The translations under genes and the position numbers were made by a program. 42,889 bases of DNA from an uncultured Clostridia bacterium (GTDB lineage Bacteria; Bacillota; Clostridia; TANB77; CAG-508): contig CANQCW010000004.1 in NCBI GenBank assembly GCA_947591055.1, positions 1-42,889 of the forward strand, in the 5' to 3' direction. Under the pieces are notes generated by a model. That model was not told the origin of the DNA. It ran no database searches and saw only the letters and a program-made list of their open reading frames with translations. Shown in pieces: positions 6,744 through 42,875 of the stretch. How positions within the stretch are numbered: position 1 is the stretch's first letter; each line of letters opens with the position of its first letter.

Positions 6744-6747
6744 CCAT

Positions 6748-10124: not shown

Positions 10125-10134
10125 CTGTTTTCAT

Positions 10135-17354: not shown

Positions 17355-18020
17355 ATGAAAAAAATTACTATTTTATCTATCGTTATCGCTTTAGTTTTAG
17401 CTTGCGCTTTCGGTATTTCTGTTAATGCCGCTGACAATGCTTCTTTTAAGGCTGGCGATACTGTTGTTGTTGAATTTGATTTAAAGGGAACTATGCAAAA
17501 TGGTGATTACAAAGTAACATACAACGACGATGTTTTAACTTTTAAAAGTATTACTCCATGCGCTGACGGTGCTGCTTATACTAAAAATGCAGGCGAAGTT
17601 GTCGCTAGTTTCTTTACACCAGCTCAAAAAGTAGTTGTTACTTTTACAGCTAAAGCTGATTCTACTGTTGAAGCAGCTAACGTTACTTTAGTTCCTAAAC
17701 TTTTCACAAATACTGAAGGTGAAGATGTAAATGTTCAAGCAGGTTCACCTGTTGTAACTGTTACACCTGCAGCTATTGAAGAAAATGTTGTTGAAAACGA
17801 AGTTATAAATGAAGTACCTGCAAATGAAGTTGAAAATGAAGTTTCAAACGAGGTTGCAAATGAAGTTTCAAACGAAGTTTCAACACCTGCTACTTCTAAC
17901 ACTGTTAATAATGATGATGACAAAACTACTTACGATCAAACTGGTGCTAACATAGCTATCGTTGCTGTTGTTGCTCTTGCTGTTGTTCTTGGTTCTGCTA
18001 TCGTTATTAAAAGAAAATAA
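17355..18020 (+). CDS. Cell-wall anchor: signal peptide, cohesin-like domain, NEV-repeat linker, sortase-type signal (YDQTG + TM + KRK)
   Basis: AGGAGG RBS before ATG 17355. AGDTVVVEF..G.YKVTYNDDVLTF resembles a cohesin N-terminus. C-terminal sorting-signal architecture. Confidence 0.75.
   Translation: MKKITILSIVIALVLACAFGISVNAADNASFKAGDTVVVEFDLKGTMQNGDYKVTYNDDVLTFKSITPCADGAAYTKNAGEVVASFFTPAQKVVVTFTAKADSTVEAANVTLVPKLFTNTEGEDVNVQAGSPVVTVTPAAIEENVVENEVINEVPANEVENEVSNEVANEVSNEVSTPATSNTVNNDDDKTTYDQTGANIAIVAVVALAVVLGSAIVIKRK
17793..17883 (+). repeat. Coding ~12-bp tandem repeat (x-N-E-V), about 7 units
   Basis: ENEVINEVPANEVENEVSNEVANEVSNEVS. Confidence 0.8.
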
Positions 18021-20115: not shown

Positions 20116-20175
20116 AAATTAATAATAAGTATTAGTGAACTTAATTGGATAATTAAAATTTATTCATTAAGAAAA

Positions 20176-20210
20176 CAAAAATATCGTACAAAAACTGTAC
20201 GATATTTTTG
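20176..20210. terminator. Bidirectional terminator between expressed cassette and cassette A
   Basis: CAAAAATATCGTACA-AAAAC-TGTACGATATTTTTG. Confidence 0.85.
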
Positions 20211-20247
20211 TATTTGATAACTTTTTAATAAACTATATAATCAAATT

Positions 20248-23200: not shown

Positions 23201-23592
23201 ACTGGAAGAATATTTGTATTTCCACCATTGAAAGTTACATCCATATTAACATTTTTAACATTTGAGGAATTAATTTCATTATCATTATTTCCAGATCCAG
23301 CTACAACTTTAAGTGAAGTAGGAGCAACTAATTTTTTAAATACAAAAGTTTTAGATTCTTCAAAAGAATTACTTTCATCAGTTATAAGTAATACATTTTC
23401 TTTATTTTCTTTTAGCTGTGAAATGCCATTAATTTTATAAATATTTTTATTAGATGAATCTTGAGTACCATCTACTAGAATATCATTTAATTTAAATCTA
23501 ATATCTTGTACTTCTTTATTTAATTTTACTGAGATATTTCCGCTAGCTTCAACTTCAAAAGAAACAATTTCAACATCTAGAACTTCTTGGTC
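20248..23592 (-). CDS. Silent cassette A (1114 aa from DQEV), Ig/FN3-like beta-rich surface protein C-terminus
   Basis: Frame runs through the site (DQEVLD). Only 7 codons upstream, no RBS or signal peptide. FN3-like W / Y.V patterns. Confidence 0.85.
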   Translation of the reverse strand, partial: DQEVLDVEIVSFEVEASGNISVKLNKEVQDIRFKLNDILVDGTQDSSNKNIYKINGISQLKENKENVLLITDESNSFEESKTFVFKKLVAPTSLKVVAGSGNNDNEINSSNVKNVNMDVTFNGGNTNILPVILEVNITDSADEPNTLTLTKELTTKNINETISGDLSSLEEGTLTLKALVRDSEGNVSTVANGTAATKYANAPVVTYEKANRTADKKKKPQASITNLKSTNTNDTVYYLVKKVGEPAPTVADIIGNSASNTSKINSFNETTSIPIPTDIGDDACVVYLAAKTASGTDSKDVVAIKVAKKGANAMEGKVTVEKETSKEATYKWDFNEETEGFVEYRVILKDSTNKIVYETVVNKGETKEVDFFDILKEQDAGTFNMTVIAVADNEDYTDVSSTGVTITTSPVLTGITITLDKNEKKISWTPTGDVAKVKDYTVEILKYDSTKTNKEYNNVVSSATTTETSNFDISSIVEKYGAGTYSFKVTANAKDDVLMANKSSDEIKKASGSSDKQANLKYYQGARIEDLRAVLEDGKVQLKGTLLDSNNLFDILSKNRASLVNYKLYYVESDKDYVEDSTAITSLPYNVAENLNPGKEYKFMIVTEVNGSKYYSNEAKVTTPISALAFTNATYVKVEKDSPVLPKLGANQVTYKDNTLYVGEKMTEYSSDIYPEVLNIISVLDQMDNNDKISVNDKITALTLTDDDKKDTTYDLTKVAKTAKVNITGEANYTTTVTGELNEITVDTAKKFDLSELSVEKVIISKDNMDLTLDTSSPVNVEVTTGTTTTINGVKIKQESKINPFIVEGDKFTFTGSNNKLSIDSSKVEKQIDVEFVGTNQDGLEISANKSNAVRVFTNAQEITGLEVKSGKVDISKAVFKSLVVGDTSMSDKYTVTLITDKTYTGNTVVGEKLTSTPKLLDWFGYYLVPSVANEASYSVKTNSDEIEFTLNKKSIVTLNQKSETLSVEETSEVKEALNKEIMKEDDHNTEFAKNMDAINSVEVDPKTNTITVKIDKTKTKAYTSEDNASKNDRTYFALIVDTGISRDKLYTDGPVSGYQVTEDDVTASSSLDLKDTEILIWWEAELPEMTIGFKNKETNEINYLTIKVEDISK

Positions 23593-23624
23593 TAGCAAAA
23601 ACGTTGAAAGCATTGAAAATACTG
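23580..23624 (-). repeat. Putative recombination site A with extended 44-bp arm
   Basis: CAGTATTTTCAATGCTTTCAACGTTTTTGCTAGACCAAGAAGTT(C). Confidence 0.88.
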
Positions 23625-23791
23625 AAAAATTGCAATTAATAAAATTAAAAGAAGAATTTAAGTGAAATAAAACTAAAGATGGGAATAAAGTAAATTCTAT
23701 CTTGTTAAAATATATAGATATGAAAATAAAAAGCTGTAAATCTGCACGTTACAGTATCTACAGCACTAGCAATACAATGTTTAAATGTTAA

Positions 23792-25127
23792 TTATTTTTC
23801 CTTTAAATATCTTTTTAAAAGGAAAGTTAAAAAATATGGGAAAGTATAAAATTTGCCATTAAAACCTATATTTTTATATCCTAGCTTTATTCCATACTTA
23901 ATATCTTTATACATTTTATTGTCTATTAAATTATTTAGAGAAATAGTCGCACCATCAATCGCTTTTACTTCAACTGGAATCAAAGAATCTTTATCTCTAA
24001 TAAAAAAGTCCATTTCAATAGTACCCTTTTCATTTTTATAGAAATATAAGTTATAGCCCTCTTTTACAAGAGTATCTGCAACAATATTTTCATAAATGGC
24101 ACCTTTATAAGTATTAAAATTTTTATTATTTCTTAAATCATCTTGTGCTTCTTCATCTAGTGAACCAATTAATAAACCTGTATCACTAAAATATATTCTA
24201 TAATTATTAGGATTAAAATTTCCTCCAAGAGGAAGTTCTGGTTGTTCTAAACAGTAACAAATATTAATAATTCCACTATCTTTCAGCCAATCTATTGTTC
24301 CAATATATTCTCTGCTTCTTGCACCATGTTCTATCTTTGAAATTTGAAACTTTTTGTTTTCATTTCCTAAAAATACAGGAATTCTACGATACACATTAAG
24401 GACTTTAGCATGATCCAAGCCGACCAGCGTACTTAGTTATATCCTCTTCATAATCAAGAAGAATTTGCTTTTGCATTTTTAATGTTCCACTATAATTTTT
24501 ATTTTTTACAAATGAATTAACAATTGCAGGCATTCCACCTATTACCATATATTCTTTAAAATTATCAAACATAACAGAAAGCTCTACATCAGAAAAAGGA
24601 ATTAAGTTTTTCATATGATTATATAGATTTTCTATTTGCTCTTCTTTATATCCTTTAGCCCAAAGAAATTCTTCAAAGTCCATTGAATACATTTCATAGT
24701 CTTCTTTATTTCCAACGCTATTAGATTCAATTTCTTTATAGTTAATTCCCATAAGAGAACCTGAACAGATTACATCATATCTTCCATCTTGATTAAATGA
24801 TTTAAGAGATGTTGCACAATTAATACAATTTTGTAACTCGTCAAAAAATATTAATGTATTTCCTGGTATAAATTCAAAATTTGGATTTTTTAAAGAGATA
24901 TTTTTAATTATAGTATCTACATCAAAACCATCATCAAAAATATCCCTATATTGCTTTTGCAGTACAAAGTTTATTTCAATTACACTTTTATAATTATTTT
25001 TTGCAAAATATCTAATTGATTCTGTTTTTCCTATTTGACGTGCTCCTTTTACTATCAAAGGCTTTTTCTGTTGACTATTTTTCCATTCTATTAAATAATT
25101 ATCAATTTTTCTTTTTAAAAGTTCCAC
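23792..25127 (-). pseudogene. AAA_14 + DUF4143-type ATPase split by a +1 frameshift near 24422
   Basis: GARQIGKT Walker A and FFDELQ in the 5' ORF; DTGLL, ENIV, EMDF, PVEVK in the 3' ORF. Removing one C gives KYAGGLDHAKV. Confidence 0.8.
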
Positions 25128-25414
25128 AATTTTTCACCATCCTATATATATATTATATCACAAAATTCCTGCTATATGCAATACATTTTTTCACAAAATT
25201 CCATTTCTATATATGTTTTTCACTTTTTGCAATTTACTGCCAAAAGTATTGTTTTATATTGCAAACTTCTTTTAAAAAAACACTGAAAGTATTGAAAATA
25301 CTAGATAATGCGTGATAAATATATTAATTTTTATAAAAAAATAATTAAATAAATAGCACATTTTTGCTTTTTATATTATAATTAAATTATATTTAAAATC
25401 ATGGAGGTAGTGTT

Positions 25415-25777
25415 ATGCCTAGTAAACTAAAAAAAATTTTAGATGAATATACTGAAGGTTTATCTAATATTCTAGACAATAAAATAGAAAAAGTAATTTT
25501 ATATGGTTCTTATGCTCGAGGAGAGCAAAGTTCTAAAGAAGAAATTAGCGATATTGATATAATGATACTAGTAAAGTCTAATTCTAGTGAGATTAAAGAT
25601 ATAGAAAAAATAGTATTAGATTATAGTTATAATCTAGATTTAAAATATAATATTGTATTATCTCCTATGGTAGAAAATATTGATGTTTTTAATAAAAGAA
25701 CTAAATATATGTCTTTTTATAAAAATGTAATGAATGAGGGAGTTATATTATCTAAAGGAATATGTAAAGGAAAGTGA
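25415..25777 (+). CDS. Minimal nucleotidyltransferase (MNT), no HEPN partner; 3' end runs into an inverted mazF fragment
   Basis: LYGSYARG..SDIDIMIL; GGAGGT RBS. Confidence 0.85.
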   Translation: MPSKLKKILDEYTEGLSNILDNKIEKVILYGSYARGEQSSKEEISDIDIMILVKSNSSEIKDIEKIVLDYSYNLDLKYNIVLSPMVENIDVFNKRTKYMSFYKNVMNEGVILSKGICKGK

Positions 25778-25862
25778 TTATCTGTATTTGTAATAGGACA
25801 AACAATTGATAAATTTGTTTTTTCATTAAATATATTATTGCTTATTACAACAGCTAATCTAT
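25741..25862 (-). pseudogene. mazF: Internal fragment of a MazF/PemK toxin gene
   Basis: Translates YRLAVVISNNIFNEKTNLSIVCPITNTDNHFPLHIPLDNIT (MazF R.AVVISN...VCPIT core); no start codon; abuts site M. Confidence 0.8.
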
Positions 25863-25906
25863 AACTTCTTGGTCTAGCAAAAACGTTGAAAACCTTGAAA
25901 ATAGTG
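25862..25906 (-). repeat. Putative recombination site M (null cassette)
   Basis: 41/44 identical to site A; cassette frame reads DQEVID-stop. Confidence 0.85.
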
Positions 25907-26036
25907 AATAAATCATAAATTATTTGTTATAATATAAATAAAACATTTATATTATCTGTATCAATAATTTTATTGACATTGTAAATAAATTATGGTAAAA
26001 TACATATAATAAAAGAAAGAAAGGAAGTGTGTTATT

Positions 26037-26303
26037 ATGGCTCAAACAAATATTAATATAAGAATGGATGAAGATTTAAAAAAACAATTTGATAAATTTT
26101 GCTCTGATATAGGTATGACAATGACAACAGCTATTTGTGTATTTGCAAAAAAAGCTGTTAGAGAACAAAAAATACCTTTTGAGATTACAGCTGAAGACCC
26201 TTTTTATAGTTCTGCCAATATGAAAAGGTTACAAAAAGCAATTCAAGATGTAGAAGATGGAAAACTTACAGTTCATGATTTAATAGAGGTAGAAGATGAA
26301 TAA
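26037..26303 (+). CDS. relB: RelB/DinJ family antitoxin
   Basis: INIRMDEDLK..IGMTMTTA..REQKIPF; promoter TTGACA(25973)-17-TAAAAT. Confidence 0.9.
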   Translation: MAQTNINIRMDEDLKKQFDKFCSDIGMTMTTAICVFAKKAVREQKIPFEITAEDPFYSSANMKRLQKAIQDVEDGKLTVHDLIEVEDE

Positions 26304-26559
26304 AGCATGGCAAGATGAAGCGTGGGAAGATTATTTGTATTGGCAGACTCAAGATAAAAAAATACTAAAAAAAATAAACCAGTTATTAAAAGATATAGAT
26401 AGAAATGCTTATGATGGAATAGGAAAGCCAGAAGCATTATCTGGAAATCTTTCTGGATACTGGAGTAGAAAAATTGATGATAAAAATAGAATTGTATATA
26501 AAGTACAAAATAATCAAATTATAATTATTCAATGTGGTTCACATTATAGAGATAAATAA
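26296..26559 (+). CDS. yoeB: Txe/YoeB family toxin
   Basis: AWEDYLYWQ, GIGKPEAL, WSRKI..RIVY, HY; overlaps the antitoxin stop. Confidence 0.92.
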   Translation: MNKAWQDEAWEDYLYWQTQDKKILKKINQLLKDIDRNAYDGIGKPEALSGNLSGYWSRKIDDKNRIVYKVQNNQIIIIQCGSHYRDK

Positions 26560-26651
26560 AATTGTAATTGCTAATCATATAATAATACTAAAAATATAAT
26601 AATAAATATTGACATTTATACTATGTATATACAATGAGAGGAGTTATTTAT

Positions 26652-26891
26652 ATGACTACTACTATTCAAAAATGGGGAAAAAGCCAAGGTGTTAGAATTC
26701 CTAAAAATATATTAGATTCTGTTAATTGGACAGAATCGGAACAGATTACAATTGTAGTTGAAAATGGTAAAATAATTATGGAAAAAACAAAATTAAAAAG
26801 AAAAAATATAAAAGAATTATTTGAAAATTATGATGGAAAATATGAACCAGTAAAAATAGATTGGGGAAATCCGAAAGGGAAAGAAATATGA
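26652..26891 (+). CDS. mazE: AbrB/MazE family antitoxin
   Basis: IQKWGKSQGVRIPK, DWG.PKGKE; GAGGAG RBS. Confidence 0.88.
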   Translation: MTTTIQKWGKSQGVRIPKNILDSVNWTESEQITIVVENGKIIMEKTKLKRKNIKELFENYDGKYEPVKIDWGNPKGKEI

Positions 26892-27009
26892 TGCGAACAT
26901 ATTAAAGCATTAGAATTAAATAGTAGAACTTACCAAATATAGAACATTTGCCAGAAGATAATTGGCACAAGTTATAGACATTATTTATTCTGAAATAGAA
27001 AAAATATAA
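26892..27009 (+). pseudogene. mazF: Degraded C-terminal third of mazF, two frameshifts
   Basis: CEHIKALELNSRTYQ / IEHLPED / LAQVIDIIYSEIEKI* in shifting frames directly after mazE. Confidence 0.75.
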
Positions 27010-27116
27010 TTAATTAACAAAGAAAATTTAGATTTAAATATAATTTTTTATTCCTGATAATAAAATTCTCTTAAGCAATACATTAATTTGTACTTACTTA
27101 AGAGATTCATTTAATT

Positions 27117-27458
27117 TTATATATTTATAACAACTCCCTCTTTTTGAACATTAGTATAAAATGGTACAATATTAACTCTTGCATTATACTTATCAATATT
27201 TTTAATTAGTGGAGATATTTCAATTTCAAAATTATTTTCACTTTCAATATCATAAGCTATATCATATATTTTATCTTTATATTGTTCTAATTCTTTTTCA
27301 TTCAAATCAGTTAAAATCATTATATCAATATCAGATGATTTATTAAAATCTCCTCGTGCATATGAACCGTATAATATTATTTTTCTTAATCTATCTCCTA
27401 ATATAACTTTTACTTTGTAAATAAAATTTTGAATAATATTTTGTATTTCTATAGGCAT
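27117..27458 (-). CDS. Minimal nucleotidyltransferase (MNT), no HEPN partner seen
   Basis: LYGSYARGD..SDIDIMIL; AGGAGG RBS. Confidence 0.88.
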   Translation of the reverse strand: MPIEIQNIIQNFIYKVKVILGDRLRKIILYGSYARGDFNKSSDIDIMILTDLNEKELEQYKDKIYDIAYDIESENNFEIEISPLIKNIDKYNARVNIVPFYTNVQKEGVVINI

Positions 27459-27519
27459 AAGTATTTCCTCCTTGCATTTATATTAAATCACAAAAGAAAA
27501 AAATTCAATAATTTTAATA

Positions 27520-27597
27520 ATTTTAGTCGACACTTTTTAATGAATTTAATCAACACTTTTTAAAAATTTTAGTCGACATTTTTTTATATTTTTAGTA
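27520..27597. repeat. 23-bp-period imperfect direct repeats (TTTTAGTCGACAC-like), 3 units plus a partial
   Basis: GTCGAC at 27526 and 27572, ATCAAC at 27549, TTTTAGT ending at 27596. Confidence 0.6.
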
Positions 27598-27638
27598 AAA
27601 ATTTTTAGATCTTTTATGATATATTTATTGAAATCATC

Positions 27639-27683
27639 CAGTGTTTTCAATACTTTCAACAATTTTTCTAGACCAAGAAGTTC
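27639..27683 (+). repeat. Putative recombination site B with extended arm
   Basis: 39/44 identical to site A; core AGACCAAGAAGTTC at 27670-27683. Confidence 0.88.
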
Positions 27684-30670
27684 CAGCGTTAGAAAAAGCC
27701 ATAGAAGATGCTTTAAAACAACTTGAAAAATATGATAACTTTATGAATTGTGATGATAATAAAGGTAGTTACGGAACAGAGATCGGATATTTAGAAACTG
27801 CTCAAGAAGATATAGAAAATGCAGAAACAGAAGAAGATGTAGCAGAAGCTCTTGATACCTTCTTATCTCAAATGGAAAAAGTAGATGAAGCAATTGCAGC
27901 ATTAGAAGAGAAAAAAGATGCAGCAATTGAAGATTTACAAGCTTATGCAGATGCATTAAATGATGTAAAAGGAATGAGCGCAGAAGACAAATCAAAAGTT
28001 AAAACTTTTGTAAAACAAGCTCAAGAAGCAGTAAAAGCCGCAAACTCTAACGAAGAAATAGAGGCAGCTACAGATACTTTTAATGAATTAATGGCAAGTT
28101 TTGAAGAAGTAAAAACTGCTAAAGAAAAGGCTGAAACACTTGCAGCATTAAATGATTATTTAGCAGAAGCAGAACCAGGAATGAAAAACGTTATAGAAAA
28201 AGCAATTGATGAAGTAAATAAAGCAACAACTGCTGAAGAAGTAAAAAATGCAGTTAACGGTCTTTTAGATGAAAAAACAGGAAAATTACCAACTCTAAAA
28301 GAAGCACAAAAAGCAGCATATGAAACACTATCAGCATATGAAGATTATTTAGCAAAAAATACAGTGGACGGAGAAAATTTAATTCTTGGAGAAATAGAAA
28401 CTGTAAAAGCAGCAATAGCTAATGCAGAAGATAAGTCTAATGTAGAAACAGCTATGGATGGATTTGATAATTTTATGGATGATTATGAAGACACAGTTAC
28501 TGCTGTTGAATTAGAAGTAGCAAAGAATGCATTAGACAATATGTATAAAGAAGTTACAGCAAAACTAAGTCCTTATGTATCAAGCACAGATAAAAATGTT
28601 AAAGATTTAGCAGATGCTGCAGTAAAATTATTTGATGAAATTAGAAAAGCCGGAGCCGAATCTGAAGAAAAAGATGATGTGGTGGAAGCAACTAATAGAA
28701 TAAAAGATTTATTCTATGGTAAAGGAAATCATGGATTACCAGCAGTAAATGAAGATAACTATGTTGTAGAATCAAATCTTAAAAGTTATTATAGTGAATC
28801 TAATATAGTAACTAACTTCTTAGGATATGAAAATGCATTAAAACACAATGCAGCAAAAACTGAAAAAGATGATAAAGCAGATAAATTAGGACGTGCAGAA
28901 GCATATAAATCAGCAATGGAAAAATTAGACTTATATACAACAGTAATAAATGACAATGATGCAGTTGAAGCATTAAAGTTAACAGAACAAAATGTAGCAA
29001 GTATCAAAGAAATGATAAGTTCAACAAAAACATCAGTAGAAAAAGCAGAAGGCAAAACTGCTGTAGATGATGCCAAAGCTATATTAGATAAATATTTAAA
29101 CAACTATTATGCAGAATTTGTAGAATATGCAGAAAACTATGAATTCGAAAGTACAAAAACAAGTGCTTTAAAAGAATTAGAAGCTTACAAAGAGCAATAT
29201 AAAGATGTTACTGAAGATGATACAATTTATGCACCAGTGAAAGATGCAGTAGATGATGCAATTACAGCTATTGAAGCATTAGAAGCTGACATAAATGAAG
29301 TTAGTGAAATAACAGAAGAATTAGAAACTGTAAAAGATGCAATTAAATTAGCAAACAAACAAGCAGAATTAAAATTAGCAGTAGATACAGCAGTAGCAAA
29401 ATATACACCACTATTAAAATCTGAAAGTGAAGAAGTAAAACAAGCAGCTGCAGCAGCAATAAAAGAACTTAGTGCTTTAAAATATAATGGATCAATTAAA
29501 AACACACCAAAAGACGTAGCTAAAATAGAAGAAAAATATGATCCTCAACTTAAAGAAGCACTAAAAGCTCAAGAAGAAAAAGATAAAAAAGAACGTGATG
29601 AAGCATTAGAACCAATAATGGATAAAGTTGACGAACTTATTGAAATAGCAACAGCAGGAAAGAGAACAGAAATAGTAAATCAATTAAATAATTTTAAATC
29701 AGAACTTAATAAAACAAAAACAGCTGAAGAAGTAAGAACAGTAAGTGGCCAATTAAATTCTTATATAAATGATTCATGTCAAATAGTAAGTGCTCAATAT
29801 GATGCGATATATAAAACATCAGTTGGATTATTAGACAAGTATAAAGAAATCTGTGGAAAAGATGAAGAAGCAAAAGCAATAGTAGACAAAGCAATAGCAG
29901 ATATCAAAGCAATAACAGAAACAGATATTGCAAGAGCACAAGCAGCAATTAATGCAATAGTTGGTGTAGGTGTATCTGACGAAAAAGAAACAGTTGCAAA
30001 GAAAATTGCTAAAATACAAGGTGAAATAACTAACTTAGACACTGAAAAAGAGAACGCTGTAAGAACTATTAATAATAAAATTGATGAATATCCAGAAGAT
30101 AAAGCAGCATTAAAGAATATAGTACAAGAATATATAGATGCAATAAATGCTGTAACAAGAAAAGGCAAAAATTATGAAACTACAATAAACAATATAGTAA
30201 CAGAAGCTGAAGCTGCAATACAAGATTATCTTGATGTTAAAATTTCTAATGAAGCAGAAAAAAATCTTAATATAAAAAGTGTTAAAAATGAAATAGGAGA
30301 ATCAACTACTTTTTTTGAATCTGGAAAAAAGGTTTCAGATTTACAAGAAAGTGTTAAAATAGTAGATGGAAAAGTTTCAGGAAAATTAAAAGAAGTAACC
30401 GATTTTACACAGTTTGGTGCTCCTGAAGGAGAAAACCATTTCTTAGCTTTAAAATTTGATAAAGGTTCTGCAGAAAGAGTTGAAATTCAATTAGTTAATG
30501 GTGATGAATCTAAGACTATCGGAGATTTAGATACTGACGGAATTGTAATAATAAGTTTTAAAGAAGAACAACAACTAACCACTAACAAAATGAAAGTAAA
30601 TTTTTATAATGAATCAAATGAATTAGTTAAAACTTTAACACTTGACTTATCAGGATTAAAGTTTGCTTAA
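27671..30670 (+). CDS. Silent cassette B (999 aa), alpha-helical bundle repeats (GA/DUF1542-like) with a beta C-terminal domain
   Basis: Begins DQEVPA. Upstream GTG 27641 lies inside the repeat and lacks an RBS and signal peptide. Ala/Glu/Lys-rich repeats. Confidence 0.85.
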   Translation, partial: DQEVPALEKAIEDALKQLEKYDNFMNCDDNKGSYGTEIGYLETAQEDIENAETEEDVAEALDTFLSQMEKVDEAIAALEEKKDAAIEDLQAYADALNDVKGMSAEDKSKVKTFVKQAQEAVKAANSNEEIEAATDTFNELMASFEEVKTAKEKAETLAALNDYLAEAEPGMKNVIEKAIDEVNKATTAEEVKNAVNGLLDEKTGKLPTLKEAQKAAYETLSAYEDYLAKNTVDGENLILGEIETVKAAIANAEDKSNVETAMDGFDNFMDDYEDTVTAVELEVAKNALDNMYKEVTAKLSPYVSSTDKNVKDLADAAVKLFDEIRKAGAESEEKDDVVEATNRIKDLFYGKGNHGLPAVNEDNYVVESNLKSYYSESNIVTNFLGYENALKHNAAKTEKDDKADKLGRAEAYKSAMEKLDLYTTVINDNDAVEALKLTEQNVASIKEMISSTKTSVEKAEGKTAVDDAKAILDKYLNNYYAEFVEYAENYEFESTKTSALKELEAYKEQYKDVTEDDTIYAPVKDAVDDAITAIEALEADINEVSEITEELETVKDAIKLANKQAELKLAVDTAVAKYTPLLKSESEEVKQAAAAAIKELSALKYNGSIKNTPKDVAKIEEKYDPQLKEALKAQEEKDKKERDEALEPIMDKVDELIEIATAGKRTEIVNQLNNFKSELNKTKTAEEVRTVSGQLNSYINDSCQIVSAQYDAIYKTSVGLLDKYKEICGKDEEAKAIVDKAIADIKAITETDIARAQAAINAIVGVGVSDEKETVAKKIAKIQGEITNLDTEKENAVRTINNKIDEYPEDKAALKNIVQEYIDAINAVTRKGKNYETTINNIVTEAEAAIQDYLDVKISNEAEKNLNIKSVKNEIGESTTFFESGKKVSDLQESVKIVDGKVSGKLKEVTDFTQFGAPEGENHFLALKFDKGSAERVEIQLVNGDESKTIGDLDTDGIVIISFKEEQQLTTNKMKVNFYNESNELVKTLTLDLSGLKFA

Positions 30671-30690
30671 ATTGAATTTGCAATATAAAT

Positions 30691-30726
30691 AAAAAATACA
30701 CGAGGTATAATACTCGTGTATTTTTT
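30691..30726. terminator. Bidirectional terminator between cassettes B and C
   Basis: AAAAAATACACGAG-8nt-CTCGTGTATTTTTT. Confidence 0.85.
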
Positions 30727-30742
30727 GCGTAAAGTCATTTAA

Positions 30743-33700
30743 CTATTTTAATCCTTGAATCTCTACTGATTCAGTTCCTTCATTTTCAATAGTTACTATA
30801 TTATTTACTCCATTTAATGTAACTTTTACATCTTCACTATCTACTCCAAAAGATGCTAAGAAGCTGTTTACTTCTGATAGAACTGTTTCTGTAATATCTG
30901 CTCCTACTGCAGTGTTTTTAGTTAATGCAGTTTTTAAATCTTCAACTGATTCATATTGTTTAATTGCTACTGTTTTTCCTTTTAAAACACTTGGAACGTT
31001 TTCTTCTACTACTGCTGTTATTTTTGCTGTTTTACCATCTTTTTTGCCTGATAATGTTACAGCTTTTCCACCTGTTAATTTATCTCCAGATACATCAACT
31101 TCTCCTTTTACTACTGTAACTTCTATATCACTTCCTACTGTTACATTTTCTTGAGTTACTGTTACTTTTCCACCATTTCCTTTTATTGTTATGCTTCCTT
31201 GTTGTGTTGTAGCTGTTCCGTCTGAACTTACAAATTTGATTGTTACATTTCCGTCATTTTGTCCTGCATCAACACTATTATTTAAGTTTTCAAATACTAA
31301 GTTGTTTGATTCTTCTCCATTTGCAACTACTGTTAATGTTGGATTATTACCTTCTATTATAGCTTTTACTGCTGTTTGTAATTTAGTTGTCATTTTAACA
31401 CCATTAATTGTTACTGTTGCTCCTTCTGCTACTATAAAGTTTCCTAATTCAGTAGCTCCTGTTTTTATTTTTACTCCATTACCTAATGTTACTACTTCGT
31501 CTTTATTCATTTTGAAATTACTTAAATCAAATTGCCCTGCTTTTAGATTTACTTCTGCTGGATATTTTTCTGATCCAGAACCGCCTATAGGTTTTCCAAT
31601 TTTTCTTTCATAATCGCTACCAGTAATGTTTAGTGTTTTTCCTTCTAAGTAATTAGCATACATAAATGATGCATCTTCTTCAGAATTTGCCTTATCTTTA
31701 TTTAATTCTAAATCTATTACATCACCATTTATTGTAACTTTATCACCATTTTTTAATTTTGAAAGGAAAGCTTTTAAGTTAGTAAATTCTCCTTTTAAAT
31801 TTGTATCACTAAAATCGTTTCCTTTGAATTCTTCTCCTTCAATTACAATTTTTCCATCACTTCCTACTGAATAAAAGTTATTTGCATTTGCTTTGCAATC
31901 TTCTTTAGTTTCAGTGCAAGTTAAGCCATTTACTCTTGGCATTGTGTGACCATTTGCAATTACATCGCTCCATCCTTCAAATTCTCCACATCTTGTAATT
32001 AGTCTAAATTGATATTCTGTATATGCTTCTAATCCGCTTACTGTGAAATATGTTGCTGTTATATTTCCATCTTCATCTTTATCATAAGTTGTTACTACTT
32101 CTGATGTTCCCATATCTTTGTAGTTAGTCTCATCAACTTTTTTATAAACTCTTACAGCATATGTTAAATCTGAATCTTCTTCTCCGTATGCGCATTTATT
32201 TGCATAGTATGGAGCTTTTTTATTTGTTGCTGTATCTAATTTAAATGTCATTGTACTATCTGAAGCGTCTGTTATTTTCGCATCTCTATATGGTGCACAG
32301 AAATAGTAATATTCTGGTTGTGAATTTACATAGATTATATTCTTATTAGTATTGTTCTTATCTTCTTCTTTCATTTTTTCACTATCTGCAGTTGCAACTA
32401 CTTCTGCATAATATCCATAGTTACGATTTAATTTTCTAGTTTTTGTCCAGTTTTCACCTACATAATTATCATTATCTGTAGCATAATAAATTGATTTATT
32501 ATTTGATTTAGTTGTTGTAGATGTTATTCTAGCATTTGGATCAAATACACCAGTTTCTGTGTCTTCTAAGTATAATTTTACTGTGTATCCTCCACAGTTT
32601 ACATCATTTTCATCCCATGATAGTTTTGGATATCCATTACTTTCATCTACAGATAATTTTATATTACTTACTGGATTTACAGCTTTTACTGTTACTGTTT
32701 CTGATTTAAATTCATCAGAATTTATTGTATTTGTTGCTTCACTTGCTATATTTCCTTTAGTTACTACTGTTATATAGTATTCTCCTGCTTCTAAAGCAGA
32801 TGTTGGATCATTGTAATTTCTTAATGTAAATTTTGTACTTCCTGCTTCTGTTTCATAATAAATTTCTCCATCTTTATATAATGTTACAATATATCCATTG
32901 TTTAAATAAGTACTTGTATGAGGATTGTTCCAAGTAAAATCTCCGTTTTCACTTGTAGGTAATGTTACACTACTAATTTTTTCTTCTTTAGTTGCCTTTA
33001 CATCATCTGCCATATCTACTTGTGGTATACTTACTGCACAATCAGCTAATACAGTTTGACTTCCATATGAATTTTCTACTATGTAGAATATTCTATATAA
33101 ATTATCGTTATTTAATCCGTCAATTACTTCATCAATTGAATCTCCATTGACTGTTATTTTTCTTGTTACTGGAGTATAACTACTGCTATTCTTTATGTTT
33201 GAGTTTGAAAACTCTTTTGTTTTTGCATCCCATTTTACTGCATCAGTAGCACTTAATTCTGTTTTTAAAGCATTATCTGGAACAGCACAATAATAAATTG
33301 TTGTTACATCACTTTCACCATATCTTGTTGCATTAAAAATAGCATTGTCTGTATTACTACGTTTTACACTAACTTTTGCAACTGTTGGCTCTACAGTATT
33401 TTTAGTTACTTTTACTTCTCCTAATGGTGTTTCATACTTTGTATCTTCTGCATCAAATAATCTAAAATATATTGTTCCATCTGATATATGTGGATATCCT
33501 CCAACTAAATCTTGATGATTTTTTTCATCTTTTGTTACATCAATTTTTGATTGGCTTGCGCCTACTGTAACTTTCATTTCATTTTCATCACTACTTGTTT
33601 CAGGTGTTACTGTTGCAGGTAAACCACTTATACTTAGTTTTCTTCCACTTTCATCAAATGCTACTAATTGAAGAGAAGTATCATCAGGGATATCTTCGTC

Positions 33701-33799
33701 ATAAGAAACAGAGATGTCTAAATTCTCTTGATTTACGTTGTTAATGATATTGTTTTCATTTACTGTTATTGTGTAATTGTAATCCTGAACTTCTTGGTC
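30743..33799 (-). CDS. Silent cassette C (1018 aa), FN3-like surface protein C-terminus
   Basis: Frame open for 74 codons upstream of the track's ATG 33577 (DQEVQDYNYTITVNENNII...); TGA immediately before the site. Confidence 0.88.
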   Translation of the reverse strand, partial: DQEVQDYNYTITVNENNIINNVNQENLDISVSYDEDIPDDTSLQLVAFDESGRKLSISGLPATVTPETSSDENEMKVTVGASQSKIDVTKDEKNHQDLVGGYPHISDGTIYFRLFDAEDTKYETPLGEVKVTKNTVEPTVAKVSVKRSNTDNAIFNATRYGESDVTTIYYCAVPDNALKTELSATDAVKWDAKTKEFSNSNIKNSSSYTPVTRKITVNGDSIDEVIDGLNNDNLYRIFYIVENSYGSQTVLADCAVSIPQVDMADDVKATKEEKISSVTLPTSENGDFTWNNPHTSTYLNNGYIVTLYKDGEIYYETEAGSTKFTLRNYNDPTSALEAGEYYITVVTKGNIASEATNTINSDEFKSETVTVKAVNPVSNIKLSVDESNGYPKLSWDENDVNCGGYTVKLYLEDTETGVFDPNARITSTTTKSNNKSIYYATDNDNYVGENWTKTRKLNRNYGYYAEVVATADSEKMKEEDKNNTNKNIIYVNSQPEYYYFCAPYRDAKITDASDSTMTFKLDTATNKKAPYYANKCAYGEEDSDLTYAVRVYKKVDETNYKDMGTSEVVTTYDKDEDGNITATYFTVSGLEAYTEYQFRLITRCGEFEGWSDVIANGHTMPRVNGLTCTETKEDCKANANNFYSVGSDGKIVIEGEEFKGNDFSDTNLKGEFTNLKAFLSKLKNGDKVTINGDVIDLELNKDKANSEEDASFMYANYLEGKTLNITGSDYERKIGKPIGGSGSEKYPAEVNLKAGQFDLSNFKMNKDEVVTLGNGVKIKTGATELGNFIVAEGATVTINGVKMTTKLQTAVKAIIEGNNPTLTVVANGEESNNLVFENLNNSVDAGQNDGNVTIKFVSSDGTATTQQGSITIKGNGGKVTVTQENVTVGSDIEVTVVKGEVDVSGDKLTGGKAVTLSGKKDGKTAKITAVVEENVPSVLKGKTVAIKQYESVEDLKTALTKNTAVGADITETVLSEVNSFLASFGVDSEDVKVTLNGVNNIVTIENEGTESVEIQGLK

Positions 33800-33800
33800 T
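33787..33800 (-). repeat. Putative recombination site C
   Basis: AGACCAAGAAGTTC(AGGATT). Confidence 0.88.
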
Positions 33801-33981
33801 CATTTAAAAAAACAAAATGTCAATTTTTATTAATATATCAACAAAAGTTAACAATTATTTGAAAGATATTATTAAAAAATAGTAGGAATAATATAAGAAA
33901 TATTGTATATAATATATAAATATATTATCTTGACAATATATTTACAAAATGATAAAATAATAATGAAGAGAGGTGATATTT

Positions 33982-34245
33982 ATGGCTCAAACTTTAATTA
34001 ACTTTAGAATTGATGAAAATATAAAAAAAGAAATGGAACAACTTTGCAATGAGTTAGGTATAACAATGACAACAGCCTTCAATATTTTTGCTAAAAAAAT
34101 GATACGTGAAAAAAGAATTCCCTTTGATGTGTCTATTGATTCATTTTATTTAGAAAATAATATAAAATACTTAGAGCAAGTAATAGCTGATATCGAATCT
34201 GGAAAATCAAAATTAGAAGAGCACAAATTAATTGAGGAGGATTAA
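33982..34245 (+). CDS. relB: RelB/DinJ family antitoxin (second copy)
   Basis: INFRIDENIK..LGITMTTAF..REKRIPF; promoter TTGACA(33930)-17-TAAAAT. Confidence 0.9.
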   Translation: MAQTLINFRIDENIKKEMEQLCNELGITMTTAFNIFAKKMIREKRIPFDVSIDSFYLENNIKYLEQVIADIESGKSKLEEHKLIEED

Positions 34246-34246
34246 T

Positions 34247-34504
34247 ATGAAGCTATTATGGGAAGAAAGAGCATGGGAAGATTATTTATATTGGCAACAA
34301 CAAGACAAAAAAACATTAAAAAAAATCAATATACTTTTAAAAGATATCCAGCGAGATTGTTATAGTGGAATAGGAAAACCGGAACCTCTAAGAGAAAACC
34401 TAAAAGGTTGGTGGAGCAGAAGAATAGACAATGAAAATAGAATTGTCTACTGCCAAAAAGGAGAAAATGTAATTATTGCTGCATGTAGAGGTCATTATGA
34501 ATAA
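34247..34504 (+). CDS. yoeB: Txe/YoeB family toxin (second copy)
   Basis: AWEDYLYWQ, GIGKPEPL, WSRRID, RGHY; GAGGAGG RBS. Confidence 0.92.
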   Translation: MKLLWEERAWEDYLYWQQQDKKTLKKINILLKDIQRDCYSGIGKPEPLRENLKGWWSRRIDNENRIVYCQKGENVIIAACRGHYE

Positions 34505-34729
34505 TATTAAATTATATAAACAGTTGCATAAATTTTTAAAGAAACTTCTGCAACTGTTTTAATTTCTTCTTATAGCAAATGTTAATTTTTTTGTTATTTC
34601 AAACAAAACTGGCATTTATATTATAATCATATTAATCTAATCATAAAATCATATTAAAAGTATATTCAAAATCATGTCACATTCTTTCGAGAATCGATTA
34701 TGAGACATTTTATTGTGTTAATAGTATAA

Positions 34730-35690
34730 TTAATCACTTTTTAATTTCCAATTTATCATAGGATGAAATTTTATTTTTTCTATAATTTCATTATCATCAA
34801 ATAATAATTCTGGTTCATATATTCCTTTGTGAAATTTATCATAAAATTCTTGAATATTATCATCAATTATTAAAATATCTTTTAAATAGTCTCTTACTGC
34901 TTGTTTCATTTCATCTACATTACTTTTTTTGGGATTTCTATCTTTTAATGTTGGTAGTAATTTTGTTTTTATTTCTTGTTTGTCTATTTTTTCTATTTTA
35001 TCAAGACTCATATCTTCAAATTTATAGTTATTAATGGCTATATATTCTAACATAAAACATTGCTTTAATAATTTTTTTTCTTCTTTATCAAATAACTGAT
35101 ATTTACTTAATGTATACACATCAAATAGATCCCTTGCTGTAGTTCTGCTTAATAATGCACAAATTTTTGCAGCATAAATTTCTATGGGATGAATACAATT
35201 AATTGCTAATTGTTTGTCTTCAAATACATCTGTAGATATTTTTAATTTTTTAGTTTTTAAAATATGTACTCTATTCATATAATTTATTTCTATCTTTATG
35301 TTGTCTATATTACCTGTTATATCTTCATATTCTGCTACAATAGAATCTAACGCATACACATTTTTAGATTTTTCTGTATTAATTCTATATGAATTAGCAG
35401 TTAAATACTGAACTAATAGATTATGTATATCTTTTCGATTTTTTATCATTTCATCTTTTGATAAATTTTCAGCCAAATCTAAGTCAATATCAACTGATAA
35501 TCTTGGAAAGTTAAATACTGCTGTATTTATAGCTGTTCCACCTTTTAAAGCTAATATGTTTTTTAACTTCTTATCATTATTAATCCATTCTAAAATTCTA
35601 AGCAATCTTTCTACTTTTTCTAATGTCGATTTTATAAAACCTGTTTTTTTTTGCAATGTCTTCTATGTATTTTTTATATTCTCCTACCAA
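34730..35690 (-). pseudogene. abiEii: AbiEii nucleotidyltransferase toxin (type IV TA), apparently +1 frameshifted in an A9 tract
   Basis: LKGGTAIN, RLSVDID, K..ALL.R...RDLFD motifs. GGGAGG RBS and TTG 35690 are in a different frame from the main body, joined across A9 at 35644-35652. Confidence 0.75.
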
Positions 35691-36436
35691 TACAATGTCC
35701 TCCCTTTAGTTAAAAATATCTCTGGAACTATCAAGTTCCATTCTTTAACATATTTGCTTTTCATTTTTTTTGTTTCTTCATTAAAATATAACTTCTTTTC
35801 ACCTTTTTTTTCTCTACATTTTTCTATTATTGTATTATTTACACCATAATGTTCATTTAATAATTCAATAAAAAAACCAACTTTTAAATATAGTTTATTA
35901 GAATTGTATCCTTTTAAATATTCTAATATTTTATCTCCATCTAGTTGCCCAAATAATTCTAAACACATTATTAATTCTTCACTACCTCCTGCTAAATCTG
36001 TTCTATTTATGCAATCAATAAAAGTTCTTTCTTTATCAGTTAATCTTACTTTGTTCTTTTCTGTTATTCCAAAATCATATTTACTATCTATACATTTATA
36101 TGATATTCCTTCGAAGTCAAAATCTTTAAATCTTTTTTTAGTCGAGACATAAACTTGGTAAAATACTTGATTTTTTACTCCATAATATTCTAATGCAGAA
36201 TGATATGATATATATGCATCATCTTTTATTTTTGATCCTATCATATATTGATCTGCAATTGTATTTTTAAATTCAATATCACATACAACATATAAATTAT
36301 GTTTTACTCTTTTTATAAGATTAAAGTCTAATAGGTCGTTTATTAAGCCTCTAGCTGAATTTATATTTCCTGTTAATTTATATACATCTTCAGAATTAAA
36401 GACTTTTAAATTTAAAATTTTTTCATATCTTATCAT
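35684..36436 (-). CDS. abiEi: AbiEi family antitoxin / transcriptional regulator
   Basis: YISYHSALEYYG, TDKERTFID; promoter TTGACA(36508)-17-TAAAAT. Confidence 0.9.
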   Translation of the reverse strand: MIRYEKILNLKVFNSEDVYKLTGNINSARGLINDLLDFNLIKRVKHNLYVVCDIEFKNTIADQYMIGSKIKDDAYISYHSALEYYGVKNQVFYQVYVSTKKRFKDFDFEGISYKCIDSKYDFGITEKNKVRLTDKERTFIDCINRTDLAGGSEELIMCLELFGQLDGDKILEYLKGYNSNKLYLKVGFFIELLNEHYGVNNTIIEKCREKKGEKKLYFNEETKKMKSKYVKEWNLIVPEIFLTKGRTLYW

Positions 36437-36773
36437 ATTATTTCACACCTTCTTTGAAAATATAGTTTATCTTTAATAAATTTTAACATGTCTATTTTAT
36501 ATTGTCAATATTTTTTCACGCTTTTTGCTCTAATATTATGTTTTTTTGTAAATTATTAGTGCAAAATTCGTGACTTGCTATAAATAGTTAGTGTCGCTAT
36601 ACACATAAAATTTTAGCGTTTTGATGAAAATTTAACAAAATATAAATTAATATACAATTTCATATTCTTAATATTTTAATAAACTTAATATACATTATTT
36701 ATAAAAAAAATTTGTCAAATCCATTAATATCAAGAAAAATATGAATTAATATTGGAATAAATTACTAAGAATC

Positions 36774-36787
36774 AGACCAAGAAGTTC
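36774..36787 (+). repeat. Putative recombination site D
   Basis: AGACCAAGAAGTTC(AGGACC); in-frame TAA three codons upstream. Confidence 0.88.
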
Positions 36788-39702
36788 AGGACCATAATTA
36801 CACAATGACAGTTAATGGCAATAATATAATAAATAATGAAAACATAGCAAAAAGTATAATAACAGTAGATTTAGAAAAATCCTCTGATACAGATACTAAA
36901 GGCTTGAAACTTTCATATTATAAAGATGATGATGGAGATGGAAAATTAAATACTAAAGCTACAACAGTAAAAGTTGATACAATAGCTAAATACACAACAC
37001 ATGCTGAAATAAAAGATAATAATGGTACAGTAGAATTTAATTTTGAACAATTACCAGAAGGTAAAAATGTTATCCAATTATTAGATAGTACAGGAAAAGT
37101 ACTTACAGAAACAATAGTTACTAAAGATACATTAACAATACCTGTAGCTGTTGAGGTTACAACAAAACGTATAGATACATCAAAAGCATCTATGTCTTTC
37201 AAAGCTAAAGAAGGTAGCGATATTGTAAAAATGTATTATGCTGTACTTCCAGTAAGTAATGATAATAGTACAATTAGATATGTTGATATAACAAATGCAA
37301 TAAAGAAAATATCAAATGGAGATTCTGCAGATAATAGTATTGTAGCTGCTGCAGAAGTAGAAGTAAAAGATAATAAATTTGAGGGCACAATAGCTACAAA
37401 TTTAGTTAATAATACAGCTTATAGAGTTATATATGTAGTAGAAAATTCTCTAGGAAATAGATTTTATGGAAAAGATTCGACTAAAGGAACAAATGTAGTA
37501 GCTAGCAAACCTGTAACAACAAAAGCAACAATAGCTAAAGACGTTTATGGAACAAATGCAGAAAAAGAAGTTAAAAGTATTACACTTCCAGATTTAGAAA
37601 ATAATGGACCTGCAGATGCTAACTTTGAATGGACATTATCAAAAACAGAAACAGAAGATGTTTCAGCAAAAACATTCAAAGTAGAAGTTCTTGATGAAAA
37701 AGGAAAAGTTTTAAATGAAGTTGAAATCACAGGTACAAATACAGCTTCTTTAAATGAATTAGGTATAACAACTCCAGGAACATATAAAATAAAAGTTACA
37801 GTAAAAGGAAAAGATAATGGTAATACATCTGCTTCTGAATCAGTAGAATCAAAAACAATAACAATTGATTCATATGAAGCTGTAAAAAATATTGAATTTG
37901 TTAATGAAGATAATGAGAAAACATTAACATGGGAAAGTAATTATACTATAATCAATGAAGAAGGCGAAGGAAATATTGCTGGATATATAGTAGATTTATA
38001 TGAATATGATACAAAAACAGATGAATATAAGAAATTAGTATCAGCATCAAATCTATCTTCAAAAGAAAAGAAATTAGATATATCAGCATATATTACAGCA
38101 AATAAACTTTATAAAGCAGAAGTTAGAGTTGAAGCTAATCCTAACCAATCTGCTAAATTAACAGCTGAAGTTGGAGAATCAAAAGAATTTTTCGTATTAG
38201 CAGGTACATCTATATCAGTATCTAAAGACGAAAATAAAAAAGATAAAATAACAACAGATTCTGTTACATTAAAAGCTACTAAGGCTGTTGTAGGAAATAA
38301 AGAAGTATCATACGATTTAAGAGTATGGAAGAAAAATACTAATACAGGAGATTTTGATGGTGCTAGATATGCTGAAGTAACAAATAAATATATGTCAAAT
38401 GTTCAATTAAGCGAAACTAGTGAAGTTGAAGTTACTGGACTAGAAGAAGGAGCAACATATAGATTTGAATTAATAGTTAAAGTTGATAGTGCAGAAGCTT
38501 CTAGAACAACAGGTGATATTACATTATTAAAATTACCTATAGAGATAAAAGGATTAGTAGTATCTGAAACACCAGGAGAAGGAAAAATAGCAAAAACAAC
38601 TGATGGAATAAGTATAGATGACGTAGAAGTAAAATCTACAGATTTTGTAAAATATGCAAATAGTGCAGAACTAACTGTAGTATCAAGCTTGTTACAAAAT
38701 ACACCATCTCTAGTTTATGGAGATAAGATAACTTTAGACGAAGATAAACTAACAGTTGAATTACAAGCACAAGCATCAACTTCATCTGTAGCTGCAAGAG
38801 ATTTTGGAAACAAATTAGAAGGAATGACAGTTGAATTAAAAGGAAATACTTCTGATAAAATAATTAAAACAACAGCTAATACTAAAGGACCTAAAGAAAT
38901 TATATTATCTGAAGGAAGTAACTTTGATATATCAGGAGTTACTGCTGAAAAAATAACATTAAAGAATAATGTTAGCGTTAAAACTGGAATAAATAAAGTA
39001 ACAGTTGCTGATGGTGCTACAGTTACAATAAATGGAGTTATAGTTACAGCTAAAAATACAGAACTTACATTAAAATCTGATGCACAAGGTACTAAAAACT
39101 TTACAGTTGATCCAACAGGAAGTGGAGTTAACGCTGATATAACATTTGAAAATACTACAACTGATGCTGTTACAATAAATTTTGTTGGAGAAAATGATTT
39201 AAGTGGAAGACAACAAGGTTCTATCACAATTAGATCTGCTTCAGGAAAAGTAACATTATCATCTCAAAATTTCAATATTGAAAGTAAAATAGATGTTGTT
39301 GTTGAAAAAGGTGAAGTTGATATTTCTAGCAAATTCTTAACAGGTGATAAGACTGTAAGTGTAAAATCTGCTGATTCTAAAAATACTGCTAAAGTAACTA
39401 TAGAAGGACCAGAAGTTCCAACAGAGATAGCCAATGTTAAAATTGATAAGTATACATTAATTGATAGAAGCGAAAGTAGTTTAAAATCATTCTTTAATTC
39501 TTCAAGTAACCAAAGTAAAAATATAATAGATAAAACAGTTTCTTTATCTAACACAAAAGCAGTTAAAGAATACTTCGATAGTTTTAAAGAATTCTTCGAT
39601 AAAGGTGCTACATTATCTAAAGCTGCTAATTCAACAACTGTAACAATTACTTTTACAAAAGCAGTTGATGGAGCTATAGATATGTCTAACTTGACAAAAT
39701 AA
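36775..39702 (+). CDS. Silent cassette D (975 aa), FN3-like, paralog of C and E
   Basis: DQEVQDHNYTMTVNGNNII; no RBS or signal peptide; shares GATVTINGV, QQGSITI and KGEVD with C. Confidence 0.88.
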   Translation, partial: DQEVQDHNYTMTVNGNNIINNENIAKSIITVDLEKSSDTDTKGLKLSYYKDDDGDGKLNTKATTVKVDTIAKYTTHAEIKDNNGTVEFNFEQLPEGKNVIQLLDSTGKVLTETIVTKDTLTIPVAVEVTTKRIDTSKASMSFKAKEGSDIVKMYYAVLPVSNDNSTIRYVDITNAIKKISNGDSADNSIVAAAEVEVKDNKFEGTIATNLVNNTAYRVIYVVENSLGNRFYGKDSTKGTNVVASKPVTTKATIAKDVYGTNAEKEVKSITLPDLENNGPADANFEWTLSKTETEDVSAKTFKVEVLDEKGKVLNEVEITGTNTASLNELGITTPGTYKIKVTVKGKDNGNTSASESVESKTITIDSYEAVKNIEFVNEDNEKTLTWESNYTIINEEGEGNIAGYIVDLYEYDTKTDEYKKLVSASNLSSKEKKLDISAYITANKLYKAEVRVEANPNQSAKLTAEVGESKEFFVLAGTSISVSKDENKKDKITTDSVTLKATKAVVGNKEVSYDLRVWKKNTNTGDFDGARYAEVTNKYMSNVQLSETSEVEVTGLEEGATYRFELIVKVDSAEASRTTGDITLLKLPIEIKGLVVSETPGEGKIAKTTDGISIDDVEVKSTDFVKYANSAELTVVSSLLQNTPSLVYGDKITLDEDKLTVELQAQASTSSVAARDFGNKLEGMTVELKGNTSDKIIKTTANTKGPKEIILSEGSNFDISGVTAEKITLKNNVSVKTGINKVTVADGATVTINGVIVTAKNTELTLKSDAQGTKNFTVDPTGSGVNADITFENTTTDAVTINFVGENDLSGRQQGSITIRSASGKVTLSSQNFNIESKIDVVVEKGEVDISSKFLTGDKTVSVKSADSKNTAKVTIEGPEVPTEIANVKIDKYTLIDRSESSLKSFFNSSSNQSKNIIDKTVSLSNTKAVKEYFDSFKEFFDKGATLSKAANSTTVTITFTKAVDGAIDMSNLTK

Positions 39703-42702: not shown

Positions 42703-42703
42703 T
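42690..42703 (-). repeat. Putative recombination site E
   Basis: AGAACAAGAAGTTC, identical to the 14-mer of expression site X, in inverted orientation. Confidence 0.88.
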
Positions 42704-42875
42704 CAACAAATCGATAAATTTATTGATTTTACATAGGTTTCCTGTATTTTATAAAAAATTATATAGAGCAGCTAAAAAAACTATTTGATTGCAAATTTTG
42801 TAAAAAAATTAGAAAAATTTGCATTGAGTTGCATTTTTTTATAAAATAGTATATAATAATAATGGAGGCGATAAT

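Follow-up and report, generated by a model that had tools for sequence, protein, structure and literature searches.

A multiple-inversion shufflon with gene-bearing spacers

The window analysed here, i.e., the whole stretch of 42,889 nucleotides (nt), is one entire contig (CANQCW010000004.1, or C4) of an uncultured Clostridia bacterium (assembly GCA_947591055.1, referred to as G000; 1.245 Mb, 69% complete, ca. 27% GC), and it carries an array of silent cassettes whose two spacers are occupied by toxin–antitoxin (TA) and defence genes. A 14-nt core, AGAMCAAGAAGTTC, was found in seven copies at the locus, three on the + and four on the - strand (the copy at site M having one mismatch), and no further exact copy (0 mismatches) was present anywhere in the assembly. 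Among the 44 genomes sampled from the genus, G000 alone contained more than one exact copy (six in total), and the reversed control pattern yielded none. In the expressed gene and each of the five silent cassettes, the in-frame translation of the core is D/E-Q-E-V, and every silent cassette stays open in that frame from the core onwards for 895–1121 amino acids (aa). The cassettes are laid out in tail-to-tail pairs, with the head-to-head sites A/B and C/D bounding spacer 1 and spacer 2, respectively (Table 1). The locus is a multiple-inversion shufflon by which a secreted dockerin protein is varied in its C-terminal part.

All genes in both spacers are TA or defence genes, as anticipated by the original prediction, made from the letters of the window, that these regions hold TA-related genes almost exclusively. 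Spacer 1 comprises, in this order, a split ATPase, a decayed site copy (A'), the nucleotidyltransferase MNT1, a MazF fragment at site M, relB1-yoeB1, MazE, and MNT2. The same prediction also counted exactly one clearly intact pair per spacer, and this had to be revised: with "intact" defined as full-length open reading frames (ORFs) with full profile cover, spacer 2 harbors two intact pairs, i.e., RelB-YoeB and AbiEi-AbiEii. The PADLOC cover of the latter pair runs over 1–241/251 for AbiEi and 13–304/306 for AbiEii; AbiEi had no Pfam match, and matches the PADLOC AbiEi models from end to end.

Table 1. Sites, cassettes and spacer genes of the shufflon locus (positions within the window)
Feature	Position	Strand	Remarks
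Expressed gene	18172..20115	+	Signal peptide, dockerin (aa 100-153), site X (18702-18715), expressed C-terminal cassette
Site X	18702	+	Exact core
Silent cassette 1	20248..23593	-	Headed by site A (core 23580-23593)
Site A	23580	-	Exact core
Spacer 1	23594-27669
AAA_14 + DUF4143 ATPase	23792..25127	-	PADLOC PDC-S01; one frameshift near 24405-24418, giving two ORFs
Site copy A'	25254..25308	-	Decayed; 62% like arm and core of A; heads the MNT1 unit
MNT1 nucleotidyltransferase	25415..25777	+	Antitoxin type, PDC-S09; without HEPN partner
MazF/PemK fragment	25747..25869	-	Profile positions 19-61; abuts site M
Site M (orphan)	25862..25875	-	13/14 core bases and conserved arm; frame shuts directly after
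relB1-yoeB1	26037..26559	+	Intact
MazE antitoxin	26634..26891	+	Without adjacent MazF
MNT2	27117..27458	-	PDC-S09; without HEPN partner
Site B	27670	+	Exact core
Silent cassette 2	27670..30670	+	Headed by site B (core 27670-27683)
Silent cassette 3	30743..33800	-	Headed by site C (core 33787-33800)
Site C	33787	-	Exact core
Spacer 2	33801-36773
relB2-yoeB2	33973..34504	+	Intact; 85-87% nt identical to spacer relBE of G315
AbiEii	34730-35656	-	Full length
AbiEi	35684-36436	-	Full length
Site D	36774	+	Exact core
Silent cassette 4	36774..39702	+	Headed by site D (core 36774-36787)
Silent cassette 5	39877..42703	-	Headed by site E (core 42690-42703)
Site E	42690	-	Exact core

TA genes are concentrated in the spacers and would be lost with the cassettes

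The two spacers together measure 7.05 kb, i.e., 0.57% of the assembly, and contain 8 of its 21 matches to the YoeB, RelB, PemK, NTP_transf_2 and AbiEii families. Specifically, both full YoeB genes and the only AbiEii gene of the assembly are located there, together with two of three RelB, two of nine NTP_transf_2 and one of six PemK matches. The association of TA and defence genes with the shufflon spacers is genuine; it recurs, and it exceeds chance by far.

Among the nine pairs of sites in the same orientation, eight would delete cassettes upon recombination, and all eight of these deletions take an intact relB-yoeB pair along, just as had been foreseen for the current arrangement. The ninth deletion, between A and M, costs neither a cassette nor an intact pair, also in agreement with what had been claimed. 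This property is not confined to the arrangement seen in the contig: when all 138,240 arrangements that inversions can produce were simulated, each of the 1,105,920 deletions with loss of cassettes also removed at least one of the two segments with intact TA genes. The geometry arises because site orientation alternates along the array, so that two sites of the same orientation always have as many cassette pairs as spacers between them, and any set of genes present in every spacer would consequently display the same deletion property. The non-trivial point is the presence of a live pair in every spacer of the G000 array, and not the geometry.

State of the TA pairs

Both RelB proteins (38.8 and 49.6 bits) and both YoeB proteins (123.8 and 122.4 bits) scored above the Pfam cut-offs, and the relB and yoeB ORFs are adjacent, overlapping by 8 and 14 nt in the first and second pair, respectively. 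YoeB1 and YoeB2 could be aligned end-to-end and without gaps to Escherichia coli YoeB (PDB 2a6q, 2a6q_E; E-values of 1e-28 and 8e-32), and both retain E46, R65, H83 and Y84, which we take to be the catalytic positions of the E. coli toxin. Compared with their nearest relatives, relB1 and yoeB1 differ by 1–2 non-synonymous and 6–9 synonymous changes, corresponding to a ratio of non-synonymous to synonymous rates (dN/dS) of 0.035–0.051, albeit from small counts. As judged from these substitutions, relB1 and yoeB1 are under purifying selection, and the modules are so predicted to be functional, with toxic YoeB proteins. The two pairs of the window share 52% (RelB1/RelB2) and 62% (YoeB1/YoeB2) identity.

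The remaining modules of the window are decayed, and all in the same direction: MNT1, MNT2 and MazE each keep the antitoxin-type ORF, and the toxin is gone. No HEPN ORF was found beside either MNT of the window, and the only trace of MazF is a fragment on the strand opposite MazE, so that neither qualifies as a pair. By eye, no remnant of a MazF N-terminus or of HEPN could be discerned among the short frames in the gaps, these frames having had no Pfam scan. The toxin partner of MNT1 is kept elsewhere, as its counterpart in the related genome G341 (85% aa identity) still has HEPN, and so does its best DNA match (90.3% nt), the MNT of G315. In G416, AbiEii is broken and AbiEi is whole. Loss of the toxin with retention of the antitoxin is the order of decay expected of addiction modules that were once active.

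Related arrays follow the same plan

All genomes compared were metagenome bins. When 401 genomes of the family were sampled, N-termini resembling that of cassette 4 were found in 15, and more than one copy of the exact 15-nt site was restricted to G000 and to G341 (7), G416 (7) and G315 (6), which represent three species of another genus. The arrays of these three genomes follow the same plan as that of G000. The spacers of G341 contain MNT and HEPN; RelB and YoeB; and HEPN, MNT and an ATPase. Those of G416 contain RelB and YoeB (ORFs 94–97% nt identical to relBE1, without a Pfam scan); AbiEii and AbiEi; and AbiEi with a broken AbiEii (as ORFs). Those of G315 contain HEPN and MNT; and RelB, YoeB, MNT and HEPN. 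An intact-looking TA pair was thus present in 9 of the 10 spacers over the four same-core genomes, and none of the spacers was empty. The expectation that homologous loci keep a TA pair in each spacer was therefore largely upheld, and failed for the third spacer of G416 and for a spacer of G128, a related array with diverged sites.

The ATPase also occurs in arrays with diverged sites. At locus L103 it lies between cassettes. Elsewhere, the PDC-S01 ATPase is found beside nucleotidyltransferase genes both in a spacer of G341 (contig C44) and at a locus of G403 in which no sites were found. The array of G128 (contig C29, L059) has four cassettes, and its ATPase spacer is flanked by inverted repeats of ca. 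0.8 kb (6136-6922 and 8464-9258), which take the place of the short core and indicate that its recombination sites differ.

Modules shared between genera

The spacer modules proved far more similar between genera than the arrays in which they reside. The relBE1 module is 96.8% nt identical to that of G416 (86/88 aa for RelB and 85/87 aa for YoeB), and over the spacer modules of G341 and G416 together the identity of relB1-yoeB1 amounts to 98% aa and 94–97% nt. Likewise, relBE2 is 87.5% nt identical to its counterpart in G315, and the C-terminus of AbiEii 96.1% nt identical to that in G416. No blastn match between genera was obtained for the gene upstream of the expressed gene (encoding 233 aa), the N- and C-terminal parts of the expressed gene, or cassettes 2–4; the N-terminus of the expressed gene is 32–42% identical at the aa level between genera, and PolA 52–64%. 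With modules 87–97% alike in nt sequence and array genes lacking nt similarity altogether, the modules appear mobile and to circulate among shufflon spacers, and by these identities their exchange is much more recent than that of the genes belonging to the array itself.

Mobility is not restricted to shufflons. The relBE family was present in 65 of the 401 family genomes, in an ordinary, non-shufflon context at 18 of the 20 loci examined, and is so a general mobile module; the copies nearest to those of G000 are the ones in shufflon spacers. Similarly, AbiEi adjoins AbiEii in 25 of 30 related metagenome loci, none of these 30 loci being a shufflon, which showed AbiE to be a mobile pair.

The composition of spacer 1 bears on how modules arrive. 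Homology to the spacers of genus g4 begins at A' (25277), and for relBE1, the block of homology (734 nt at 94%) opens precisely with the core of site M (25863). From these boundaries, spacer 1 looks like three spacer units of the g4 type in tandem, headed by A, A' and M, respectively. Inversions cannot generate such a three-unit spacer, which would require that site-bearing modules were inserted or that intervening cassettes were lost.

Recombinase, rearrangements and flanking features

No recombinase gene was found within the window, which stops 186 nt beyond site E; whatever follows in the array, be it a further spacer or its flank, is absent from the assembly. In G315, G416 and G299, a tyrosine integrase lies ca. 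120 nt from a terminal site, and the integrases of G315 and G299 are 85% identical across genera. We infer that the recombinase of G000 is likewise of the tyrosine type. Two candidates in the assembly were rejected. An integrase at the end of contig C1 is the best match in this 69%-complete assembly, and at 25–27% identity is too distant. A large serine recombinase on contig C84 (1-1780), its N-terminus cut by the contig start, had no overlap joining it to the end of C4, and this link was dropped because the integrase of the relatives is of the tyrosine type and has an N-terminus unlike MVERK. The latter peptide is encoded at the extreme end of the window (42875-42889), where a ribosome-binding site and an ATG gene start are located 172 nt past site E. 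At the other extremity, nt 1-55 of the contig overlap one end of contig C56, its likely left-hand neighbor in the assembly.

At least eight contig ends in relatives fall on a site or within ca. 75 nt of one, and breaks in the contigs of run X1 fall at C and D as well as at other positions. No inversion joint could be read directly in the contigs examined. The joints that did turn up in the contigs of four runs had sides of 20–26 nt, none of them linking two sites, and were taken as noise. In the probable source run, contig depth was 1–17 over 18767-23435 (the expressed cassette and cassette 1) vs. 50–145 over the rest of the array, which may reflect heterogeneity of strains or arrangements, or a filter effect.

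A conserved arm of ca. 45 nt is found on the spacer side of sites A, M and B (23594-23641, 25876-25911 and 27622-27669, respectively); it also occurs at sites of G341, G416 and G315 and is missing at C, D and E. This difference may point to two site subtypes or to a site for an accessory factor. Immediately upstream of site B lies a 23-nt tandem repeat in 3.7 copies (27512-27615), and a stretch with 78–81% similarity to it is located upstream of a + strand site in G341 (L073:19183-19254). The repeat may bind a protein or act as a promoter for the spacer.

Directly upstream of the expressed gene, a 233-aa protein (17319-18020) is encoded that has a signal peptide, 12-nt repeats of the NEV type and a hydrophobic tail at its C-terminus. 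The expressed gene of the other genus is preceded by a comparable gene of ca. 200–230 aa (25% identical in G341) and by a sortase, so that the 233-aa protein may be a partner or an anchor. As a probe, the N-terminus of the expressed gene lacked specificity, with matches to dockerin proteins in 169 of the 201 genomes, and was discarded. Further upstream, a ToxN gene (9590-10081, - strand) preceded by a 36-nt tandem repeat in 3.1 copies (10128-10240) looks like a type III ToxIN system.

Why the modules persist in the spacers

The reading that we favor, and to which we would grant about an even chance, is that the modules are most likely addictive passengers that also penalise deletions of the array, the guard effect being a by-product. 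In this view, the spacers are landing pads on which mobile and self-promoting modules of the TA and abortive-infection kinds settle (RelB-YoeB of two types, MNT/HEPN, AbiE, MazEF and the PDC-S01 ATPase). Recombination at the conserved sites would probably carry these modules from one related shufflon to another across genera, and they would persist by addiction, being hard to lose. A site-to-site deletion that loses cassettes would then also remove both genes of a pair, after which the labile antitoxin should decay and free the YoeB mRNA interferase, and the deletant would be arrested or killed. Of this, the exchange of modules at the sites, the post-segregational killing and any deletion activity are inferences. 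The guard effect is real in logic, and is most likely a by-product of the selfish persistence of the modules and not its cause.

A number of observations weigh against this reading. The two RelB/YoeB pairs may cross-neutralise each other, and a third RelB gene is located on contig C81. The contigs of the four runs contained no clean site-to-site joint. Moreover, known bacterial inversion systems favor inversion over deletion, according to the consulted part of PMC11850598, and such a preference implies that the threat guarded against may be small. The count of nine spacers in ten overstates the independent support, as the four same-core genomes are kin that draw on one module pool, and are no independent samples. 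Against a strong guard role in particular, the third spacer of G416 has no live pair (AbiEi with a broken AbiEii), and the G128 spacer carries an ATPase only, so that an array evidently need not have a live pair in each of its spacers to persist.

The recurrence of the pairs could also be the product of selection on the host or the array itself, maintaining at least one live, non-cross-reacting TA pair per spacer in order to protect the silent cassettes, although we consider this adaptive version improbable enough to rank well below the passenger reading. It would account for an intact pair in 9 of 10 same-core spacers with none left empty, for the purifying selection on toxin and antitoxin alike, and for the fact that the pairs differ between spacers (relBE of types 1 and 2 in G000; MNT/HEPN, relBE and HEPN/MNT in G341), as insulation needs. 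The danger is moreover not imaginary, since natural shufflons do lose segments, with segment C being absent from 16 of 21 IncI2 plasmids in the consulted part of PMC5430464. However, selfish addictive modules predict the same pattern, and cassettes remain in G416 and G128 next to spacers without a live pair; if spacer 1 does consist of three fused units, the cassettes between them were lost anyway, or the modules were inserted. The original prediction that addiction modules guard the cassette library is thus retained in part: the recurrence of pairs, the kept YoeB residues and the dN/dS values speak for it, but the placement is automatic and selfish passengers fit equally well.

With similar reserve, the spacers might be conceived as an exchange platform for TA and defence modules, serviced by the recombinase and resembling an integron or recombinase-mediated cassette exchange, on which site-bounded modules would move between the shufflons of different genera, stack behind the same-orientation sites A, A' and M, and police the array against deletions, in a mutualism of addiction modules with a phase-variation device; we regard this as rather unlikely.

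Slightly less probable still is that the spacer genes form a defence islet, with anti-phage or abortive-infection roles and no stabilising role at all, gathered beside a recombinase-serviced surface-variation locus much as defence genes gather in islands. PADLOC indeed recognised the ATPase (PDC-S01), both MNTs (PDC-S09) and AbiEi/AbiEii (AbiE), but none of RelB, YoeB and MazE; the PDC-S01 ATPase recurs at loci without classical TA genes (the G128 array and locus L103), and the ToxIN-like system lies 8 kb upstream. Such an islet would leave unexplained why the genes are positioned inside the spacers rather than beside the array, and why the toxin was lost in every decayed module, and defence and addiction are not mutually exclusive. 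Ancestry alone, in which one ancestral shufflon carried spacer TA genes by chance and its descendants inherited them, would fit the site sequence and module types common to all same-core arrays, but is very improbable given modules 87–97% nt identical between genera amid array genes without nt similarity, module sets reassorted among genomes with differing AbiE and MNT types, and PolA and blastn comparisons that already suggest a module history incongruent with that of cassettes and genome.

Comparison with known systems

In searches of the full-text literature, none of the top-ranked papers, judged by title and opening of the abstract, dealt with TA genes inside a shufflon, and no paper was found in which dockerin, invertible, recombinase and phase variation came together. 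The individual components do have known counterparts. The toxin resembles that of E. coli YefM-YoeB (2a6q), but the antitoxin belongs here to the RelB (PF04221) and not to the Phd/YefM family. AbiE, known as a type IV TA or abortive-infection system, is likewise an adjacent pair of full-length genes, here situated inside a shufflon spacer.

The array itself is reminiscent of the R64/IncI shufflon (Rci, sfx sites, pilV), with which it shares many short sites in both directions and alternative C-terminal segments of a surface protein. In the relatives of the present locus, the recombinase at the array end is a tyrosine recombinase of the phage-integrase type. In contrast to R64, the cassettes here are ca. 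3 kb long and in tail-to-tail pairs, the constant part carries a dockerin, and gene-bearing spacers of 0.8–4 kb intervene; to our knowledge, R64 has no gene-bearing spacers. The locus, in which two RelB-YoeB pairs and an AbiE pair come together with a site of 14 nt, offers a concrete and cheap test system, as well as a handle on the spread of TA modules among gut commensals.

The closest analogue is the chromosomal integron, such as the Vibrio cholerae superintegron, in which TA cassettes kill cells upon excessive excision (Richard et al. 2024, PMC13108822, in the part consulted). As far as that part of the source describes integrons, both systems mix silent, recombinase-serviced cassettes with TA modules, TA genes are enriched in the array over the genome, and their loss on excision should kill. 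Unlike the integron, the present array is an inversion shufflon that makes C-terminal protein variants, and not an attC/attI system, and its TA genes lie between head-to-head sites and not in attC-bounded cassettes. That an inversion shufflon of uncultured gut Clostridia has this layout as well would point to a general rule, namely that silent-cassette arrays serviced by a site-specific recombinase, integron and shufflon alike, tend to recruit addiction modules.

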